A stretch of DNA of 64,000 nt, taken from contig JALUCS010000118.1 of NCBI GenBank assembly GCA_027050205.1, positions 12,992 to 76,991 of the forward strand. The letters are read 5' to 3'. Position 1 is the stretch's first letter; every line of letters begins with the position of its first letter. The notes beneath the pieces were generated by a model, which did no database searches, had not been told where the DNA came from, and saw only the letters and a program-made list of their open reading frames with translations. The DNA is from a candidate division WOR-3 bacterium. GTDB taxonomy: Bacteria > Hydrothermota > Hydrothermia > LBFQ01. Both the position numbers and the translations under genes were made by a program. Below, one piece after another: positions 36,466-46,227 of this stretch.

Positions 36466-36807
36466 TTAAGCCCGATCGGGGGCCTCCCTCACCGCCTCCC
36501 AATCCACCGGTGGCTCCCCCCTCAAGTCTGCCAGTTTACCCTTGCCTATGAGGATCCAGATGCCGACGGGGAACCTATCCCTGTTCAGGCGGTACAGCTC
36601 CCGGAGTTTCCGCTTTATCCTGTTCCTCCGGACGGCCCTCCTGACCTTCCGCTCAACGGCGAAGAGGACTTTCCTCTGTCCATAGGGGGCGTACCTGATG
36701 ACGAGGTAATCGGAGGAGAGTACCGTCCTTGAGTTGCGGAAGGCGTACCTTATCTCCCTCCTGTGGCGGAGGATCTCCCCCTTGTTGAGGCCGTACCTCT
36801 TAGCCAT
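36466..36807 (-). CDS. rnpA: Ribonuclease P protein component
   Basis: KVRRAVRRNRIKRKLRE RNR motif. Confidence 0.88.
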   Translation of the reverse strand: MAKRYGLNKGEILRHRREIRYAFRNSRTVLSSDYLVIRYAPYGQRKVLFAVERKVRRAVRRNRIKRKLRELYRLNRDRFPVGIWILIGKGKLADLRGEPPVDWEAVREAPDRA

Positions 36808-37796: not shown

Positions 37797-38922
37797 CGAC
37801 GGCCTCCTCCCTTTCCTTTTCTACGGCGATGCACACCTTCGTATCGGACGCCCCCATCATCATAAAGATATGCTCCCAGCCGACCACCGAGAAGATGGCC
37901 TCCATTATCTCCGGGGCGCTCACCCCCCAACCTACGACGCACACCATGGACAGACCCTCCCTCAAGGCGAACCTCACCCCCATTTCCGATAGGGTCTCCA
38001 ACGCCCTGTCCCGCTCCTCCAAGGGTACGGAGAGGACGAGGTGCTTACCGGTCGTGGCGTCGTGGGTGAAGTTCAGGACCCTTACGGCCTCAACCATCCG
38101 CGCTAAGAGGGGAAGTCCCTCCCTCCCCTCAACGTCAAACATAACGATGGGCATGGTGGTGATGGCCTTAACGCCCGGACTCTCAAGGTGTTCCCTCTTC
38201 TCCACCAACGTACCTCCCTTTTCCGGTTCGTAGGATGAGAGTATAAGGAAGGGGAGGCCGTACTTGGCGGCCAGGTTGACGGCGCGGGAGTGCATCACCC
38301 TGGCACCGGAGGAGGCCATCTCGGACAGGATGGTGTAGTCCATCCTCTCGTACCTCCTGACTCCGGGGAACTTCCTCGGGTCAAGGGCGAAGACTCCGGG
38401 AACGTCCGTGTATATCTCGCAGGGTACCTTGCCGAGGGATATGGCGAGGGCTACGGCCGTGAGGTCGCTCCCACCCCTCCCGAGGGTGGTTATCTCCTTG
38501 CTGACGCTCACCCCCTGAAAGCCGGCGACGACGGGGATCTTACCCTCCTTCAGAGCGTCCGTTATGCGGTAGAGCTTTATCTCAAGCACCCTCGCCCTGT
38601 TGAAGCGGTCCTCCGTGATTATGCCCACCTGCGACCCCGTAAAGGATATGGCCTCAAGCCCCAGCTCGTACAGGGCCATGGACAGGAGTGCCATAGATAT
38701 GCGTTCTCCGACGGTTAAGAGCATGTCCAACTCACGGGGCGGGGGTCTCCTTGATACGCTGTAGGCCAGTTTCAGGAGTTCGTCCGTCGTCTTGCCCATC
38801 GCCGAGACTACGACGACGGGGGCGCACACCTCCCGCTTCCGCTTGACTATCTCGGCCACCGCCCGGATCCGCTCCGGCGTGGCTACGGAGGAGCCACCGA
38901 ACTTAAGGACGCAGGGGGTCAT
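37753..38922 (-). CDS. lysC: Aspartate kinase
   Basis: [27 protein letters not shown]. Confidence 0.95.
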
Positions 38923-39787
38923 AGATCTTAACTATTCGGTTCAACATTTTATAGTTTAATATCCAATCCATCTCCGTCATTGCCCTTTCCATATGATTTT
39001 TCATTTTCAACCAACCTCTGCCATCAGTAATCCACACGAATATAATGCCGTATTCTTTGGCTTTTCTGTGAAGTTCTATATAATCCCCTACTATAGCATT
39101 TGGCTTACTTCCAGGTGTATTGTAGAAATTCGCCTCTATTATCATAAAGGGTTGCCTATCTGTAGATTCTAAATATAGAGCGAAATCATGACGTTTGCGG
39201 CGGCTTCCATATAGGGAAAAGTTTGCATCTTGGGGAACTATTTTCACCCTTTTTGATATAATTTTGGAAATTTTATTATAAACCATTTGCTCAAATATGA
39301 GGCCACTTCTATTTTTTCTTGCATTTGTGTCTAATCCAACTTCCACCCCAAGTATATAATCAAGGAGGTTCTGGGTTCTATCAAAAATATTAAGTATACC
39401 AGTGCGTTCACAGAATTTCACAACAGTTTTTAAGTCATATCTATCATCTTTGGGATCAAAAATTACGGTTAATATTTTTTCTGATACCGCATCAAAAATA
39501 TCTATACCTTTTGTGTGCAATCTAACTGCAATGATAATAGGTATAACTTTTGATACTTCTGGATACTCTTTAAGGATTTCAAATAATTTATTTTTTCTCC
39601 ACTTTCCATGATATCTTGACAGAATGGATAAAATTTGCAATTCATTCTCATAATGTTTAACATTTGATAGAACTCTATCCCAATCAACAAAATATTCGTA
39701 TGTTTGGTTGGTTTTCAAAAGCGTTTTAAAAAAGGTTGACTTATATTCATCAAAACTGTCAAATCCTAATTTCTCAAAATTTACCAT
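38903..39787 (-). CDS. DpnII/MboI-family type II restriction endonuclease
   Basis: [38 protein letters not shown]; markedly AT-rich. Confidence 0.9.
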
Positions 39788-39788
39788 A

Positions 39789-40721
39789 TCACCATCCCCC
39801 CCTTTCCCTGTGGCTGCTGAACCTGTACTTCCTATACTCTCCCTCATCCTCCGGCTTACGAAATACGAAGATCTGCTCGTGGGTTATGAGGTAGAAGTCG
39901 TAATTCCTCCCCCTCCATCTCTCCCTCGTCCCCTTCATATTATGTTGGACTTTAACGATATTTTCTAAAAGCACAAAACCGACCTCCAGAAAGGCCTCAA
40001 GTACGTAGTGGGATATAGGTACGTAGTGCTTGTGCTTTCTCGTATCCCCTATGAGTATGGCGCACACCCTGCCCGGCTTCAGCACCCTGAAAAACTCTGC
40101 TGCTGCTGTCTTCATCCCCTCCAGGTACTCCGGGAAAGAAAGGTTAGAAAGGTCATCTTTATCGCCTTTCTTCCTGCTATAGACGATTATGTTTGCGTAC
40201 GGTGGGTGGGTCGCCACGAGATCTACGGAGTTAGATGGCACCTTATCAAGGTTCCGGGCATCCCCCCAGTAGGTGCGGACTTCCGGCATCTCCGATTTTT
40301 CAAACATATCGTTGACTTCAAAGTTCAACCTGTCCAACGTGAGCATCACCGACTCGTAGTTGATATCCACCCCTATAGCCCTCCGTCCAAGGAGCCGGGC
40401 TTCAACCAAGGTCGTACCGCTGCCCATCATAGGGTCTAAGACGGTTTCCCCCTCCTCCGTGTATTTGAGAATGAGGTTGCGGGGTATGTAGGGAGACCAA
40501 TTCCCTCTGTAGTTTCCCCTGTGTGTCGCCCAAGAGCCTCTATCCGGGAAGCTCCATACCGTCGTTCTTTCCAGCTCGTACCCTGCCGGAGGTCCGAGCG
40601 TTTTAACCAACTTCCTCCCCGTTAGCTCTATCCTCACTCCCCCAACTTCAACGTACCCCTTTTCCCTTCTAAACCTCTCGTAATCCTCCCATTCTACTTC
40701 CACCATCTCCCTGTACCTCAT
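39789..40721 (-). CDS. N4-C/N6-A DNA methyltransferase, partner of the endonuclease
   Basis: DPMMGSGTT (motif I) then THPPY (motif IV); ATG overlaps the upstream TGA at 40718-40721. Confidence 0.88.
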   Translation of the reverse strand: MRYREMVEVEWEDYERFRREKGYVEVGGVRIELTGRKLVKTLGPPAGYELERTTVWSFPDRGSWATHRGNYRGNWSPYIPRNLILKYTEEGETVLDPMMGSGTTLVEARLLGRRAIGVDINYESVMLTLDRLNFEVNDMFEKSEMPEVRTYWGDARNLDKVPSNSVDLVATHPPYANIIVYSRKKGDKDDLSNLSFPEYLEGMKTAAAEFFRVLKPGRVCAILIGDTRKHKHYVPISHYVLEAFLEVGFVLLENIVKVQHNMKGTRERWRGRNYDFYLITHEQIFVFRKPEDEGEYRKYRFSSHRERGGW

Positions 40722-41419
40722 ATCACGTGCAGCCAGCTGTGGAGAAGGAAGTATATCCTGCCGAGGAGCAGGGAGATACGGCCCATAACCGTGTAGCCGA
40801 AGGAGGCCCCGAAGGCCACCATTATGAAGACTATGCCGATGTTCACTATCGGCTTCATTATCCCCTTCTGCTCCACGGAGAAGAAGAAGTACAGGATGGT
40901 CGTGAAGACGCCGATTATGAAGACCCAGTTGGAGAAGGTGGTGAGGGCGCTGTCGGTCCAGAGGGGAAGGAAGGTGGCCTTTATCTGCGGGAATATGATC
41001 CCCTGGAAGAGGGCCGTCAGGTTTATACCGGTGTAGATACCGATGGTGACGGCGAGGGGGTAGAGGGCGAGCCAACGGAGTTGAGGGGCGACGTAGCCGA
41101 ATATCTCCAATTTCGTCAGGATCATCAAACCGAGGATGGCGCCTATTATGACCACCAGCTGGCCGAGGGTGAGGAAGGGTACCTGCTGGCCCATGAAGTT
41201 GAAGGTGCCGAGTTTCAGGACGACGTACTTGCTGTCCCTTATGCCCTGGGCGATCTGGGGCCAGATGGCCTGGTTGAAGATGTTGATTATGCCGTAGCCC
41301 GCGGAGACGCCGACGAAGATATGCTCCGCGAACCGATACACCGGGTTCTCCTTTATTATGAGCGAGAGGATCGCCAGCGTTAGAAAGGCTGCTATCCAGA
41401 CTCCAATTACTTCGGCCAT
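40718..41419 (-). CDS. Uncharacterised multi-pass membrane protein (KENPxYRFAEH type)
   Basis: KENPVYRFAEHIFVGVSAGY, ILYFFFS, FGASFGYTVMGR. Confidence 0.85.
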   Translation of the reverse strand: MAEVIGVWIAAFLTLAILSLIIKENPVYRFAEHIFVGVSAGYGIINIFNQAIWPQIAQGIRDSKYVVLKLGTFNFMGQQVPFLTLGQLVVIIGAILGLMILTKLEIFGYVAPQLRWLALYPLAVTIGIYTGINLTALFQGIIFPQIKATFLPLWTDSALTTFSNWVFIIGVFTTILYFFFSVEQKGIMKPIVNIGIVFIMVAFGASFGYTVMGRISLLLGRIYFLLHSWLHVI

Positions 41420-41421
41420 GG

Positions 41422-41670
41422 CTACCTCTTCCTCTTTCTGTTCCTCTTGAGCTTTTCAACCTCCCGCAGGAGTATCCTGTAGTTCTCCTCCAGGGCCTTC
41501 ACCTTGCCCGTCGCCGATGAAACCTCCCCCTTGGCCTCCGAAACCTCAATCCTTAGGTGATTTACCTCCTTTTCAAGCTTGTTCAACCTGCTTTCGAACT
41601 TCTTGGAATCCCTCGCCGATATGCAACCGGCGGCGAACAGTAGAACAGCTAAAGGTAGGAGCCTCCTCAT
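41422..41670 (-). CDS. Small coiled-coil lipoprotein
   Basis: LFAAGC lipobox followed by heptad repeats. Confidence 0.75.
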   Translation of the reverse strand: MRRLLPLAVLLFAAGCISARDSKKFESRLNKLEKEVNHLRIEVSEAKGEVSSATGKVKALEENYRILLREVEKLKRNRKRKR

Positions 41671-41715: not shown

Positions 41716-42579
41716 ATGAAGAACCTGTGGTTTTGGCTCTTCATCTTCTTCGCCGCCCTAACCGGCATCTTGCTCGTCCTCCGCATTTTGGTCAAGAGCC
41801 AAACCCTATCGCTGGGGAACGTCCTCTACGTTGAAATTGATGGCAACATAGACGACAAGAAGATCCCGGAGATAGCCGACTGGGCCTACGAGAAGCTCAA
41901 GGGCGACAGGATGAACCGCATAAAGGGAGTGTTCGTATATATAAACAGCCCCGGCGGGAGCGCTGCGAGCAGCGAGACTATGTACCAAGTCCTGAAGTTC
42001 GCCGAGAAGAAGGGGAAGAAGGTCGTGGCATACATACACTCCATCGGTGCCTCCGGCGGATACTACATCGCCTCCGCCGCCGATACGATCGTCGCCAATC
42101 CCGCCGCCCTGACGGGTTCCATAGGGGCGATAATAATACTGCCGGAGGTCACGGAACTGTCCAAGAAGGTCGGGGTCTCCTGGGACATATACAAGTCGGG
42201 CAAGAACAAGGACCTGACCCAACCCTTCCGGAAGAGGACGGAGGAGGACAGCGTCCTGCTGACGGAGTTGGCCAAGGAGGTATGGAAGGTCTTCCTCAAC
42301 AGGGTGGCCGAGGGTAGGGGCAAGAAACCGGAGGACCTTATGGAGATTGCCGACGGAAGGGTTCTGACGGCGGAGCAGGCCCTCAAATGGGGCTTGATAG
42401 ACGTCCTCGGAACCAAGTACGATGCGATGGAGATACTGAAGAGGATGACGGGGATCAAGAAGGTTAAGCTCATAAAGAGGCCGAAGAAGACGAACCTTCT
42501 CAAACAGGTTTTCGGGACGACCGCCCGAATCGGCGAGATGATGGACGAATGGATGCTCCCCAAGGCCCTCTTCTACTAA
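41716..42579 (+). CDS. sppA: Signal peptide peptidase (36K type)
   Basis: INSPGGS, ASGGYYIA, TGSIG, KSGKNKD, DGRV. Confidence 0.95.
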   Translation: MKNLWFWLFIFFAALTGILLVLRILVKSQTLSLGNVLYVEIDGNIDDKKIPEIADWAYEKLKGDRMNRIKGVFVYINSPGGSAASSETMYQVLKFAEKKGKKVVAYIHSIGASGGYYIASAADTIVANPAALTGSIGAIIILPEVTELSKKVGVSWDIYKSGKNKDLTQPFRKRTEEDSVLLTELAKEVWKVFLNRVAEGRGKKPEDLMEIADGRVLTAEQALKWGLIDVLGTKYDAMEILKRMTGIKKVKLIKRPKKTNLLKQVFGTTARIGEMMDEWMLPKALFY

Positions 42580-44030
42580 ACGGTGATGCTCAAGAGGGAC
42601 AGCACCATCTCCTCAAGGGATATACCACCGTGAAACATCTTCTTTCTGTACAGCTCGGCGAACTCCGATGCCCTCTCCCCCCACACGAAGTAGGTATCCT
42701 CGGCGGCGAATAGGAACTTCCCCCAGTCCGGGAGGCCCCACTCCTCCGGGCGCTCAACCAGTACGGTCCGTCCCTCTCCTTTGGGGATCATCTCCTTCCC
42801 GTACTTGTGCCTGAAACCCTTGCTGAAGTCCTCACCCTCCACCACGACGGGCTTACGCCCGATGGTCCAACCGTGGTCCGACGTTATGAAGACCCTGTAC
42901 CCCTTGTCTAAGAAGCGACTTATCACGGAGGAGAACCTACCGTCCTCCAGGATGAGCCTCGCCCACCTCTTTATGGACGACTCTCCCTCACCGAGGGCCT
43001 TCAGGGCCTCCACGTTGGCCGTAAGGTGCAGGATGGTATCCACGAAGTTGACGATGTATATCTCCAGCCTCTTCCCGTAGGGTTTCATCTTGGCCAGAGA
43101 CTCCAAGTCCTTTATCTTAGTGTACCAAACCCCAACCCTGTACCCTTCCCTCTCAAGTTGCTTCCAGAGGAGCTTCAGCTCACTCTGATTGTCGTTCAAC
43201 GCCCCCGGTATCATAACTTCCGTCTCGTTGGGCAAGGCACCGCTGAACAGGGCGTTGCGGGAGTACTGCGTGGCCGTGGGAAGGAGGGACATGTAGATGC
43301 TCTGCTCCACCTTGTAGTTGGGGGAGAGGGCGGATACCACCTCGTAGATCTGATCAAACCGGAAGTTGTCTAAGACGATTAGGACTACCGGCGAGACCTC
43401 AACGTAGGGGAGGACGAGCTTCCTTAGGAGGTTGTGCGACATGAGGAGTGTATCGTCCCTGATTATCTCTGGATAGTTCCTCTCTATCCAAGCAGCGAAC
43501 TTGGCGTTCTCTTGGGACAGGATCTCATCAAACTTACTCCTGTATCCCTTATAGACGTACCGGGCCTGGAAGATCTTAACAGCCTTCAGGAGGTACCCGT
43601 CAAAGGTCTCCGGTATGCGGCTTATCTCCTCCCTCAACCTGTCCGCTTCGTCTATGTAGTACTCCCTCTTCAGGCTCTCCTTGTGGAGGCGGGCTATGAG
43701 GGCCATGAGCTGGGCGGGTTGGACGGGTTTGACGAGGTAGTCGTAGGCGTCCTCTACCATTGCCTTCTTGATAAGCTCGGCGTCGGTCATCATGGTGAGC
43801 ATTACGACGGGGACGTGGGGATAGGCCCGCTTGATGAGCTTGAGGGCCTGAAGGCCGTTCACCCTCGGCATACGGTAGTCCAGAAGGATCAGGTTGTAAT
43901 GATGGCGTGAGAGCTTATCCACCCCCTCCTCAACGGTAGTCGCCGTATCCACTTCAACCCCCTGCGACCTCAAGAAGGCCACTATGGAGTACATCTCGTC
44001 TATCTCGTCGTCTATCCAAAGTACCCGCAT
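42576..44030 (-). CDS. PorX-like response regulator (receiver + PglZ domain)
   Basis: LWIDDE, LLDYRMP, YLVKP; LDNFR, LPTATQYSRNALFSG, TSDHG, HGGISLEEM. Confidence 0.9.
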   Translation of the reverse strand: MRVLWIDDEIDEMYSIVAFLRSQGVEVDTATTVEEGVDKLSRHHYNLILLDYRMPRVNGLQALKLIKRAYPHVPVVMLTMMTDAELIKKAMVEDAYDYLVKPVQPAQLMALIARLHKESLKREYYIDEADRLREEISRIPETFDGYLLKAVKIFQARYVYKGYRSKFDEILSQENAKFAAWIERNYPEIIRDDTLLMSHNLLRKLVLPYVEVSPVVLIVLDNFRFDQIYEVVSALSPNYKVEQSIYMSLLPTATQYSRNALFSGALPNETEVMIPGALNDNQSELKLLWKQLEREGYRVGVWYTKIKDLESLAKMKPYGKRLEIYIVNFVDTILHLTANVEALKALGEGESSIKRWARLILEDGRFSSVISRFLDKGYRVFITSDHGWTIGRKPVVVEGEDFSKGFRHKYGKEMIPKGEGRTVLVERPEEWGLPDWGKFLFAAEDTYFVWGERASEFAELYRKKMFHGGISLEEMVLSLLSITV

Positions 44031-44057
44031 CTGTAAGGTTATATTCTAACCTTGAGG

Positions 44058-44324
44058 TATAATAGTATCTATACTCTGTCTAAGTTGTCTAACCCAAGTT
44101 TTGAGAATTATTTTTCACTTTAGGTTCAAAAATAGGGTGTCTAAACTTAGACACCAGTCTGTACGTTTGATAATTTAAATTTTTAAACAAATTTTCGCAA
44201 TAATTGCAATAATACCGCATACGACCTAAATACAATTTCACCTCCACGCGGATTTAGACACCTCGCCGGCGGTCTGTCTAAATTTAGACACTAGAGTCTA
44301 AGTCGTGTCTAAGGCGTTGTCCAA
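44058..44324. repeat. Non-coding array of TGTCTAA/TTAGACA boxes around an AT-rich tract (candidate oriC or protein-binding array)
   Basis: Eight exact and two one-mismatch heptamers, including two 16-bp palindromes TGTCTAA-AY-TTAGACA; AT-rich 44166-44214. Confidence 0.8.
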
Positions 44325-44559
44325 CATATGGGGTGATGTCTGTCCCCTACGGTACGTTGGTGTAAGGTGCAGTTGACGAAAGGCACCAATACGGGTTCAA
44401 GGTCCTGCTATCCGCGGCACAGGGAACTTCGTCCCAACGACCCTTTGAAAGGATCATACCATCAGCCGAATACGATACCGATAAAAAACCCTATTATATC
44501 ACTCCATCAGTGTAATCCCAGCCTTCCCTGTACTGCTACCTGAACCTCCGCTACCCCTT

Positions 44560-46227
44560 CTAAAACAGGCCGGAGACCCTTCCCCTCTCGTCTATGTCCA
44601 TCCGTACGGCGGCCGGCTCCTTAGGTAGACCGGGCATTGTCATTATGTCCCCCGTTATGGGGACGAGGAAACCGGCTCCCGCCATTATCCGGACCTCCCT
44701 GACGGTTATCTCAAAGCCCCTCGGCCTGCCGAGTTTCTTAGGGTCGTCCGATAGGGAGTACTGGGTCTTGGCGACGCAGATGGGTAGGTGGCCGAACCCC
44801 ATCCTCTCGTACCGCCTTATGGCCCTCTCCGCCTCCGGGTAGTATATGACGCCGTCCGCCCCGTATATCTCCCTGGCCACCCTCTCTATCTTCTCCTTTA
44901 TCCCCATCTCCGGCGTATAGATGGGATGGTAGTTGCTGCCAACCTCAAGGGCTTGGAGGACTGCGTCCGCCAGCTCAAGCCCCCCTTCGGACCCCTTCGC
45001 CCAGACCTCAACGAGGGCGTAGGGTACCCCCTCCCCCTTCAGGAGAGAGTCTAAGGTCCGCAGCTCCTCCTCCGTATCCGTAGGGAAGCGGTTGATTGCC
45101 ACGACGACGGGGAGGCCGAACTTCCTTAAGTTCTCTATGTGCTTCTGGAGGTTGGGGAAGCCCCTCTCTAAGGCCTCCGGGTTAGGCTCGGAGACCTTCC
45201 CCTTCGGCACCCCCCCGTGATACTTGAGCGCCCTGACCGTAGCTACTATAACGGCGGCAGACGGGGCGAAGCCCCCTATGGGGGCCACGAGGTCCAGGAA
45301 CTTCTCTGCTCCGAGGTCGGCACCGAAGCCCGCCTCCACCACCGCCACGTCCGAGTAGGCCATGGCCATCTCGGTGCTTAGGACGGAGTTGGTCCCGTGG
45401 GCTATGTTGGCGAAGGGGCCGGTGTGGATGAGGGCGGGGGTGTTCTCAAGGGTCTGGACGAGGTTGGGCTTTATGGCGTCCTTAAGGAGAACGGCCATCG
45501 CCCCCTCCGCCCTTATGTCCCTGGCATATACCGGCTCCTTACCCCGCGTGAAGCCGATCAGGATGTTCCCAAGGCGCTTCTTGAGGTCGGCGTAGCCCTT
45601 AGCCAGGCCTAGGATGGCCATCACCTCCGACGCCGGCACTATGACGAAGGAGTCCTCACGGGGGAAGCCGTTCTTCCTGCCACCGAGGCCGACGACTATG
45701 CCCCGCAACGCCCTGTCGTTCATGTCCAACGTCCGGGGCCAGAGGACGGTACGGGCGTCTATGTCAAGGGGATTCCCGTGGTGGATGTGGTTGTCTATCA
45801 TAGCAGAGAGGAGGTTGTGGGCGGAGGCTACGGCGTGGAAGTCCCCCGTGAAGTGGAGGTTTATGTCCTCCATAGGGACGACCTGGGCGTATCCTCCCCC
45901 CGTCGCACCTCCCTTTACGCCGAAGACCGGGCCGAGGGAAGGTTCCCGGAGGGCCACGACCGACCTGACTCCCCTACGGTTGAGTGCCATAGATAGGCCG
46001 ATGGAGACCGTCGTCTTACCCTCACCGAGGGGGGTAGGGTTCATAGCCGTCACCAAAACGAGCTTCCCCCTCTCCTTCCTGTCCTCAAGTAGGTCCAGGG
46101 GAAGCTTGGCCTTGTAGTTTCCGTACTTCTCTATCCGTGATGGGGGGATCCCCATCCTCTCGGCCACCTCCTCTATGGGCAGGAGGTTGGCCCTCTGGGC
46201 TATGGAGAGATCCGAAGGCACACTCAT
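44560..46227 (-). CDS. fhs: Formate-tetrahydrofolate ligase
   Basis: TPLGEGKTT, KGGATGGG, HTGPFANIAHG, CVAKTQYS, MTMPGLP. Confidence 0.98.
   Translation of the reverse strand: MSVPSDLSIAQRANLLPIEEVAERMGIPPSRIEKYGNYKAKLPLDLLEDRKERGKLVLVTAMNPTPLGEGKTTVSIGLSMALNRRGVRSVVALREPSLGPVFGVKGGATGGGYAQVVPMEDINLHFTGDFHAVASAHNLLSAMIDNHIHHGNPLDIDARTVLWPRTLDMNDRALRGIVVGLGGRKNGFPREDSFVIVPASEVMAILGLAKGYADLKKRLGNILIGFTRGKEPVYARDIRAEGAMAVLLKDAIKPNLVQTLENTPALIHTGPFANIAHGTNSVLSTEMAMAYSDVAVVEAGFGADLGAEKFLDLVAPIGGFAPSAAVIVATVRALKYHGGVPKGKVSEPNPEALERGFPNLQKHIENLRKFGLPVVVAINRFPTDTEEELRTLDSLLKGEGVPYALVEVWAKGSEGGLELADAVLQALEVGSNYHPIYTPEMGIKEKIERVAREIYGADGVIYYPEAERAIRRYERMGFGHLPICVAKTQYSLSDDPKKLGRPRGFEITVREVRIMAGAGFLVPITGDIMTMPGLPKEPAAVRMDIDERGRVSGLF

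Follow-up and report, generated by a model that had tools for sequence, protein, structure and literature searches.

Among bacterial protein–DNA codes, the DnaA box with its contacting residues is one of the most conserved. In Escherichia coli, the residues R399, P423, D433, H434, T435 and H439 contact the box (PMC2533591). Re-specified boxes are already known in Thermotoga (PMC10316083, PMC4285127) and, in a mild form, in Epsilonproteobacteria (PMC5043019). The oriC of Thermotoga maritima uses the box AAACCTACCACC / ACCTACCAC (PMC10316083, PMC4285127) and, according to a 2015 review, alone among the studied origins departs by more than two mismatches (PMC4285127). Epsilonproteobacterial origins carry TCATTCACA, a drift attributed to helix 5 substitutions in domain IV (PMC5043019).

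The window analyzed here, 64,000 nucleotides of a contig from a candidate division WOR-3 bacterium (assembly G000; 2.05 Mb, 93.5% complete), contains an array of TTAGACA boxes that is probably the chromosomal oriC of its family, its boxes predicted to be read by a single, re-specified DnaA. A sequence-only reading of the window had arrived at the same core idea, an oriC unlinked to dnaA and recognized by a DnaA with changed specificity, and the uniqueness of the array, the altered domain IV, the arrays of relatives and the strand switch in the relative G007 support it. Box and reader alike seem to have been rewritten throughout the family, with canonical sister families preserving the state before the change; given this before state and the short list of residue changes, the co-change of initiator and site is directly testable. 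If the assignment is true, the family would supply an orthogonal initiator–origin pair for the chimeric DnaA systems in use, such as the one made for Thermotoga (PMC13643167), and origin finders based on boxes and GC skew would miss or invert such an origin. Among the titles and abstract openings searched, we found no publication on TTAGACA as an origin box or on the origin of this lineage.

A phased array of TTAGACA boxes

The array comprises eight exact TTAGACA boxes and two one-letter variants within 267 bp, with the boxes spanning 44077–44324. All positions in the sequence-only reading proved exact: TGTCTAA at 44077, 44086, 44138, 44275 and 44306, TTAGACA at 44147, 44254 and 44284, the variants AGTCTAA (44295) and TGTCCAA (44318), two 16-bp palindromes (44138–44153 and 44275–44290) and, on the minus strand, the tandem 9-mers TTAGACAAC TTAGACAGA followed after 7 nt by TAC TAT TAT. 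On that strand, box 1 (TTAGACA, 9-mer ACTTAGACA; 44077–44083) is the outer and box 2 (TTAGACA; 44086–44092) the inner member of a 9-bp tandem pair, with box 2 lying 52 bp from palindrome 1 (44138–44153; TGTCTAA AC TTAGACA), in which boxes 3 and 4 stand back to back. The 107-bp spacer that follows contains the AT-rich tract that had been noted between the two clusters (44166–44214); it measures 14% G+C and, by composition, is a candidate unwinding element. Beyond it, box 5 (TTAGACA, ATTTAGACA; 44254–44260, plus strand) precedes palindrome 2 (44275–44290; TGTCTAA AT TTAGACA, boxes 6 and 7) by 21 bp, a step seen in both genera of the family, and three minus-strand boxes at a pitch of 11–12 bp (44295–44324; TTAGACT at 44295, TTAGACA at 44306 and TTGGACA at 44318) complete the array.

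On its left, the array is flanked by a response regulator with receiver and PglZ domains (42576–44030, minus strand), which we take to be PorX-like, and on its right by a formate-tetrahydrofolate ligase (44560–46227, minus strand) that is not kept beside the array in relatives. This right flank is variable, since strain-level contigs from four other runs cease to match the window at 44321. To the right of the array also lies a dispersed repeat some 100 bp long (44367–44474), with six partial copies of 86–94% identity on contigs C104, C95, C15, C87, C83 and C122 and no Rfam match. Nor did an Rfam scan of 43500–45000 yield any hit with E up to 1.

When the 267 bp were shuffled 5000 times by dinucleotides, TTAGACA occurred 0.06 times on average and at most three times, and any 7-mer at all reached eight copies, overlaps counted, in one shuffle. 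The check proposed in the sequence-only reading confirmed this as the densest TTAGACA cluster of the genome, with 8 sites per 300 bp against 2 in the runner-up and 97 sites in the 2.05 Mb; only two other 7-mer families attain 8 per 300 bp in G000, on C95 and C10. Matches to TGTCTAAnnTTAGACA with up to two mismatches are confined, in the G000 assembly, to the two 16-bp palindromes. Nor does a canonical cluster lie elsewhere in G000, where TT[AT]TNCACA never exceeds two per 300 bp. Full scans of the G000 assembly and of 1.45 Mb of G007 each showed a single intergenic box cluster.

Across 95 boxes, the conserved span consists of Y (91 boxes), TTAGAC (92–95, of which TxGAC was fixed by the search pattern) and a final A (65), with the next two bases agreeing in 43 and 41. 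The register TTAGACAnn of the sequence-only reading found no support: conservation starts at the Y before TTAGAC, ends at the final A and then fades, so that the register (A)YTTAGACA is preferred over TTAGACACC; judged from the alignment, it is the more likely 9-mer, a preference rather than a forced choice. In this register the box shares six of nine letters with the box of a sister family, TTTTCCACA, with positions 1, 5 and 6 changed; the 6/9 match formerly counted between TTAGACACC and the DnaA box TTATCCACA was reproduced. Compared with TTWTNCACA, the 95 boxes have 2.5–2.7 mismatches on average in either register, about half having two and half three to four, and so do not, taken together, stay within about two mismatches of it.

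Conservation and distribution of the array

Equivalent arrays, which the sequence-only reading had proposed to look for, are present in relatives: in ten of the twelve family genomes the palindrome GTCTAAnnTTAGAC is found at a single locus. Searches of the assemblies G003 and G009 found no array; the G003 assembly is without the flanking gene as well, so its array locus is probably unassembled. Outside the family, the array pattern occurred in none of 19 sampled relatives, and a scan of the phylum with a related pattern, which matched 6 of 11 family genomes, matched none of 190 genomes from outside the family. When 185,579 genomes were scanned, 76 loci came up; only two of them, both family copies, have at least eight boxes in 350 bp.

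Within genus 1, the steps between boxes (9, 52, 9, 107, 21, (9), 11 and 11–12 bp) change little. The AT-rich spacer is fixed in length at 107–108 bp (97 bp in G001) and free in sequence. Over the six genus-1 arrays, 50 of 70 box columns are invariant, compared with 21 of 178 spacer columns. Box 1 is retained in all six, as TTAGACA, TTAGACG or TTGGACA, and the TGTCTAA of box 2 is invariant. Palindrome 1 has 15 of 16 columns invariant and shows no variants in the four strain-level runs; the right half of palindrome 2 is degenerate in G001, G002 and G004. The genus-2 arrays follow a related plan of an 11-bp run, a palindrome, the 21-bp step, an AT-rich spacer and a second palindrome, with 11-bp box runs in G007, G008, G010 and G011, and AT-rich DNA also lies beside the boxes in relatives' arrays. 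At the strain level, contigs from the four other runs (two studies) contain 33 variable sites, none of them in the 67 box positions, and no indels (hypergeometric probability 6e-6, if sites are independent).

The neighborhood is less stable. The response regulator adjoins the array in five of six genus-1 arrays and in none of genus 2, where purS adjoins it in 4/4; the opposite side differs in most genomes, so that the two genera differ in flanking genes, which on one side also vary inside each genus. With its flanks changing, the array behaves like a free-standing, phased protein-binding platform rather than the operator of a single gene.

The Bacillus-type trio layout suggested by the sequence-only reading fared less well. 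The candidate DnaA-trios next to box 1, ATA CTA TTA (44060–44068, minus strand), overlap what is probably the downstream gene's promoter and are invariant among the strain-level contigs, yet unconserved in genus 1. A minimal three-trio rule (PMC8287927) is passed in G000 and weakly in G005 and fails at the same place in G001, G002, G004 and G006; a strict trio pattern matched none of the ten arrays. With the trios missing at this place from four of five congeners, there is no firm case for a Bacillus-type unwinding module.

The DnaA of the family

The G000 genome encodes a single DnaA, on C93, a different contig from that of the array; PF00308 has one match per family genome, and the G000 protein scores above its cut-off. 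The AAA+ motifs of the initiator clade (Walker A and B, Arg finger and sensor II) are retained and R278 is invariant, with one of the 12 family DnaAs (G005) lacking the sensor-II Arg. The closest solved relatives, by profile and by fold, are DnaA proteins. The NCBIfam model TIGR00362 gives the G000 protein 111 bits, far below the cut-off of 344 bits, and Pfam Bac_DnaA_C (PF08299), which matches the T. maritima control, matches in none of the 12 family genomes. All 12 contain dnaB.

Domain IV (about residues 355–443 of L002:1105–2436), whose recognition residues had been singled out for inspection, is altered. The recognition helix is altered in all 12 family proteins to CSR(A/S)(S/T)VYNY (CSRASVYNY in G000), compared with the (K/R)DH(T/S)TVLH-like helix of relatives, e.g., RDHTTVLHA. 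In the 16 complete domain IVs from eight other families, His434 is kept throughout and the Asp-His pair in 11; two further non-family rows are incomplete and were left out of this count and of the quick tree. The family equivalents of E. coli D433, H434, T435 and H439 are S, R, A/S and N, and P423 is not kept (contacts as given in PMC2533591 and PMC5043019). Elsewhere in the domain, the basic loop is shortened and part of the first helix is missing. The predicted structure nevertheless keeps the domain IV fold: the model of the last 91 residues has a pLDDT of 85, and its top two Foldseek matches, 3pvp and 1j1v, are domain IV–DNA structures (TM 0.72; E 0.18–0.19, not significant alone).

The new helix is near-invariant over both genera in a DnaA that is otherwise about 40% identical, which indicates that it is under selection. 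The family branch is long (1.85 in the quick tree), and because box and helix changed on this one branch, their correlation counts as a single event. Among open reading frames with the helix pattern, DnaA is the sole credible one in G000 and in 1.45 of the ~1.7 Mb of G007. A domain IV search against 1.84 billion representatives gave 38 matches; four were inspected, with no second lineage among them: one is an HTH repeat protein, and the other three are DnaA of the family or a fragment of it. No TTAGAC box occurs within ~450 bp upstream of dnaA in any of the 12 genomes. Elsewhere in the class, DnaA helices of families f5, f6 and f7 (L016, L017, L026 and L015) read IHHTAILY, VHHTAVIY, RHHTTVLS and RSHSTVIY, and at L031 (G028) the dnaA frame breaks after Walker B, at 303 aa.

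The sister families show the canonical state. In f2, arrays of seven to nine canonical boxes (TTTTCCACA) lie away from dnaA in three of five genomes (L273/G017, L274/G015 and L275/G014) and are likely the oriC of those genomes; searches of G013 and G016 found no canonical array, and an inverted-pair pattern matched none of the five. A triple canonical-box pattern matched none of 31 genomes, controls included, and was therefore too strict. The DnaA helix of f2 is DHS(T/S)IIN(G/A), and in f3 and f4 canonical boxes lie beside dnaA. The f2 arrays, too, lie apart from dnaA, which suggests that the origin had moved from dnaA before its box changed.

Position on the chromosome

Along the window and contig C1 of G007, uncorrected GC skew did no more than follow gene orientation and was rejected as an origin signal, and we therefore used fourfold-degenerate sites corrected for gene strand. 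In three controls with canonical boxes at dnaA, the switch falls at dnaA and the outward strand is G- and T-rich. In G007, the most contiguous relative, the combined fourfold index along C1 (347 kb) peaks at the gene at 318.4–320.4 kb, which places the switch within about 3 kb of the array (322.3–322.5 kb); the 21 genes beyond the array are more extreme than all 247 preceding blocks, and dnaA (C3) shows no switch. Over 25 kb on each side of the array in ten contigs, the sign was the same in seven, opposite in two (G000 and G002) and uninformative in one (7/10 negative; naive z −4.4, driven mainly by genus 2). The skew check proposed in the sequence-only reading thus shows a strand-corrected switch in G007, whereas G000 gives no signal (outward purine index +0.009; contig-level strand test, p 0.52 for GC and 0.05 for TA).

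The strand pointing away from the array is T-rich, as in the controls, but C-rich, the opposite of the f3/f4 controls, so that GC skew alone would label the site a terminus and polarity had to be read from other markers. TA skew has origin polarity at nine of ten arrays. A single dif-type site, identified with the dif consensus, is present in each of the 12 family genomes and lies on another contig in all 10 that have both array and dif (C126:17104–17126 in G000 and C4:51702–51724 in G007). The most strand-biased of all 8-mers in G007 is GGGTAGGG, presumably a KOPS-type word, which occurs 95:42 on the pyrimidine-rich strand, the one pointing away from the array; in six genomes it is oriented into dif 41:4, and at the arrays it is balanced (16 in, 19 out). 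The generic GGGNAGGG has a weak bias (220:178) and no polarity at arrays (138:142). The genes for 16S rRNA, dnaA, dnaB, rpoBC, IF2, S12 and gyrB are on the pyrimidine-rich strand, and dnaK and rpsD, in G007, on the opposite one.

Taken with the orientation of KOPS-type words into dif, the strand of the rRNA and these genes indicates that the pyrimidine-rich strand is likely leading and that the array sits at the origin switch; GC skew is thus likely inverted in the family. The origin polarity is drawn from KOPS-type words, rRNA and TA skew, with GC skew playing no part in it, and a replichore switch of this polarity, away from dif, is found in G007 and in the pooled genus-2 contigs. Skew at dif itself is weak (three of six genomes, z 1.3, with short stretches used for four of the six), and gene orientation bias is almost nil (493/939, 52.5%, in G007). 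The caveat that ribosomal protein genes would meet forks from this origin head-on is real, as rplF and rpsE at 29.2–30.8 kb face the array. Across contigs C1–C7 of G007 (L050–L067, L210–L255), fourfold GC and TA skews are anti-correlated, as for a leading strand that is likely C- and T-rich. In the window, rnpA (36466–36807) lies 7 kb from the array without its usual rpmH-yidD-yidC-mnmE neighbors; yidD-like and mnmE-like genes are on C117 and C110 of G000.

Alternative explanations

The array could mark the origin region and yet be bound by another family-specific protein, an accessory initiator or origin organizer, with the specificity of DnaA lost or changed otherwise. The back-to-back 16-bp palindromes would suit a dimeric regulator, domain IV is without part of its first helix and loop, and the dnaA promoter is without a box; against this stand the selected, near-invariant new helix in both genera, boxes that also occur singly and in direct 9–12 bp runs, like DnaA boxes, and, for an archaeal-type initiator, the absence of Cdc6_C from the four genomes tested, and we regard this reading as unlikely. 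That a transcription factor, e.g., of the TetR family, controls a neighboring gene through the array as operator or promoter is improbable, even though unrelated bacteria have TGTCTAAnnTTAGACA palindromes next to TetR-like regulators, in the gaps between divergent genes (L107, L129, L135, L140, L153 and L155; TetR domains confirmed by Pfam in three of these six regulators), where the palindrome is likely an operator motif. These loci have one or two palindromes between divergent genes and no phased array, and their regulators, whose binding is itself presumed, have helices of the form R(G/S/A)(T/S)(F/L)Y(N/T/Y)(Y/H) that resemble RASVYNY; such helices are common among TetRs, and the likeness is possibly convergence. 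At these six loci, and also at L083 and L117, the gene divergent from the TetR-like one encodes a large membrane protein. An operator would also accommodate TAGACA being one letter off the −35 hexamer, six promoter-like sites where 1.0 is expected and a response regulator start 47 bp from box 1. It would leave the skew switch unexplained, and the array stays while flanking genes change; the TetR regulator found family-wide has the helix TKSYFYFY with no box upstream at 13 of 14 loci, and there is no regulon, with five scattered sites of the 10-mer consensus outside the array.

A terminus element, whether fork trap or matS-like, would account for a switch whose GC polarity is the one that most bacteria, like the f3/f4 controls, show at the terminus. 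It is nonetheless very improbable: dif is on a different contig in all ten genomes with both, KOPS-type words converge on dif and not on the array, the TA skew is origin-like at 9/10, and rRNA, rpoBC, dnaA, dnaB and the KOPS-type word are on the strand leading away from the array. The sequence-only reading had itself offered a variant parS, and the 16-bp palindromic unit does share 10 of 16 letters with parS. However, most boxes are unpaired half-sites, a perfect canonical parS lies at C93:84491 in G000, on the dnaA contig, and parS with at most one mismatch occurs in 8 of 12 family genomes (in G007, 180 kb from the array). The ParB HTH residues, inspected as that reading had advised, are ordinary, the helix GKSRSAVTNTLRLL...SEGH looking standard beside those of ParB/Noc proteins, and we give the centromere very little credence. 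A dif site with inward KOPS-type words together with canonical parS elsewhere thus argues against both the terminus and the centromere. An iteron-type origin from a plasmid or phage integrated into the chromosome is the least credible: the 11-bp runs are iteron-like and such palindromes occur at 25 loci in viral contigs, but none of these has more than six boxes, the flanking genes are housekeeping genes and the array was inherited across two genera.

Comparison with known origins and proposed mechanism

As a probable oriC read by a re-specified DnaA, the locus has a precedent in Thermotoga, which likewise has about ten non-canonical boxes in mixed orientation, an 11-bp pitch, an AT-rich element and an altered recognition helix (NRSHPVVVDS in T. 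maritima; sequence of 2z4r). The box is different and two perfect 16-bp palindromes are present here; of the Asp-His pair, Thermotoga has retained the His, whereas the family has Ser-Arg, and recognition in Thermotoga is proven in vitro, whereas here it is predicted. With E. coli and B. subtilis (TTATCCACA) the family shares the AAA+ motifs, the domain IV fold, a helically phased box cluster and AT-rich DNA and, with E. coli, an origin displaced from dnaA; unlike theirs, its box shares 5–6 of 9 letters with the canonical one, its basic loop is shortened and the equivalents of P423, D433, H434, T435 and H439 are changed. In Epsilonproteobacteria one or two letters change and Asp-His is kept (PMC5043019), whereas in the family the pair itself is replaced. 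The G000 array resembles the basal unwinding system of PMC8287927 in having tandem boxes followed by three NAN units within 16 bp, and the B. subtilis ssDNA-binding residues I190 and K222 named there align with Val and Lys in the family DnaA; it differs in that four of five congeners have no such trios at the corresponding position.

One domain IV would dock on each (A)YTTAGACA box by way of the new helix, and the new G would probably be read by the Arg at the His434 position. The steps of 9, 11, 21 and 52 bp may phase ATP-DnaA protomers into two sub-complexes flanking the AT-rich spacer, an arrangement resembling the bilateral origin layouts that have been shown to work (PMC13643167). The filament would then melt AT-rich DNA, with 44166–44214 or 44040–44076 as candidate sites, and DnaB would be loaded. 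A fuller and tentative version, which we consider rather doubtful as a whole, holds that a TetR-like Arg-x-Ser/Thr-x-Tyr-Asn-Tyr helix replaced the near-universal Asp-His pair, that symmetric pairs of domain IV occupy the 16-bp palindromes without conserved trios, and that the resulting code is orthogonal to those of E. coli and Thermotoga and arose on one branch with inverted GC skew.

Apart from the array, a stretch of lower GC content in the window (38903–41459) contains open reading frames that by eye resemble a restriction endonuclease and a DNA methyltransferase, and G000 has CRISPR-like arrays at C131:5898 and C78:30, whose two 30-bp repeats are closely related.
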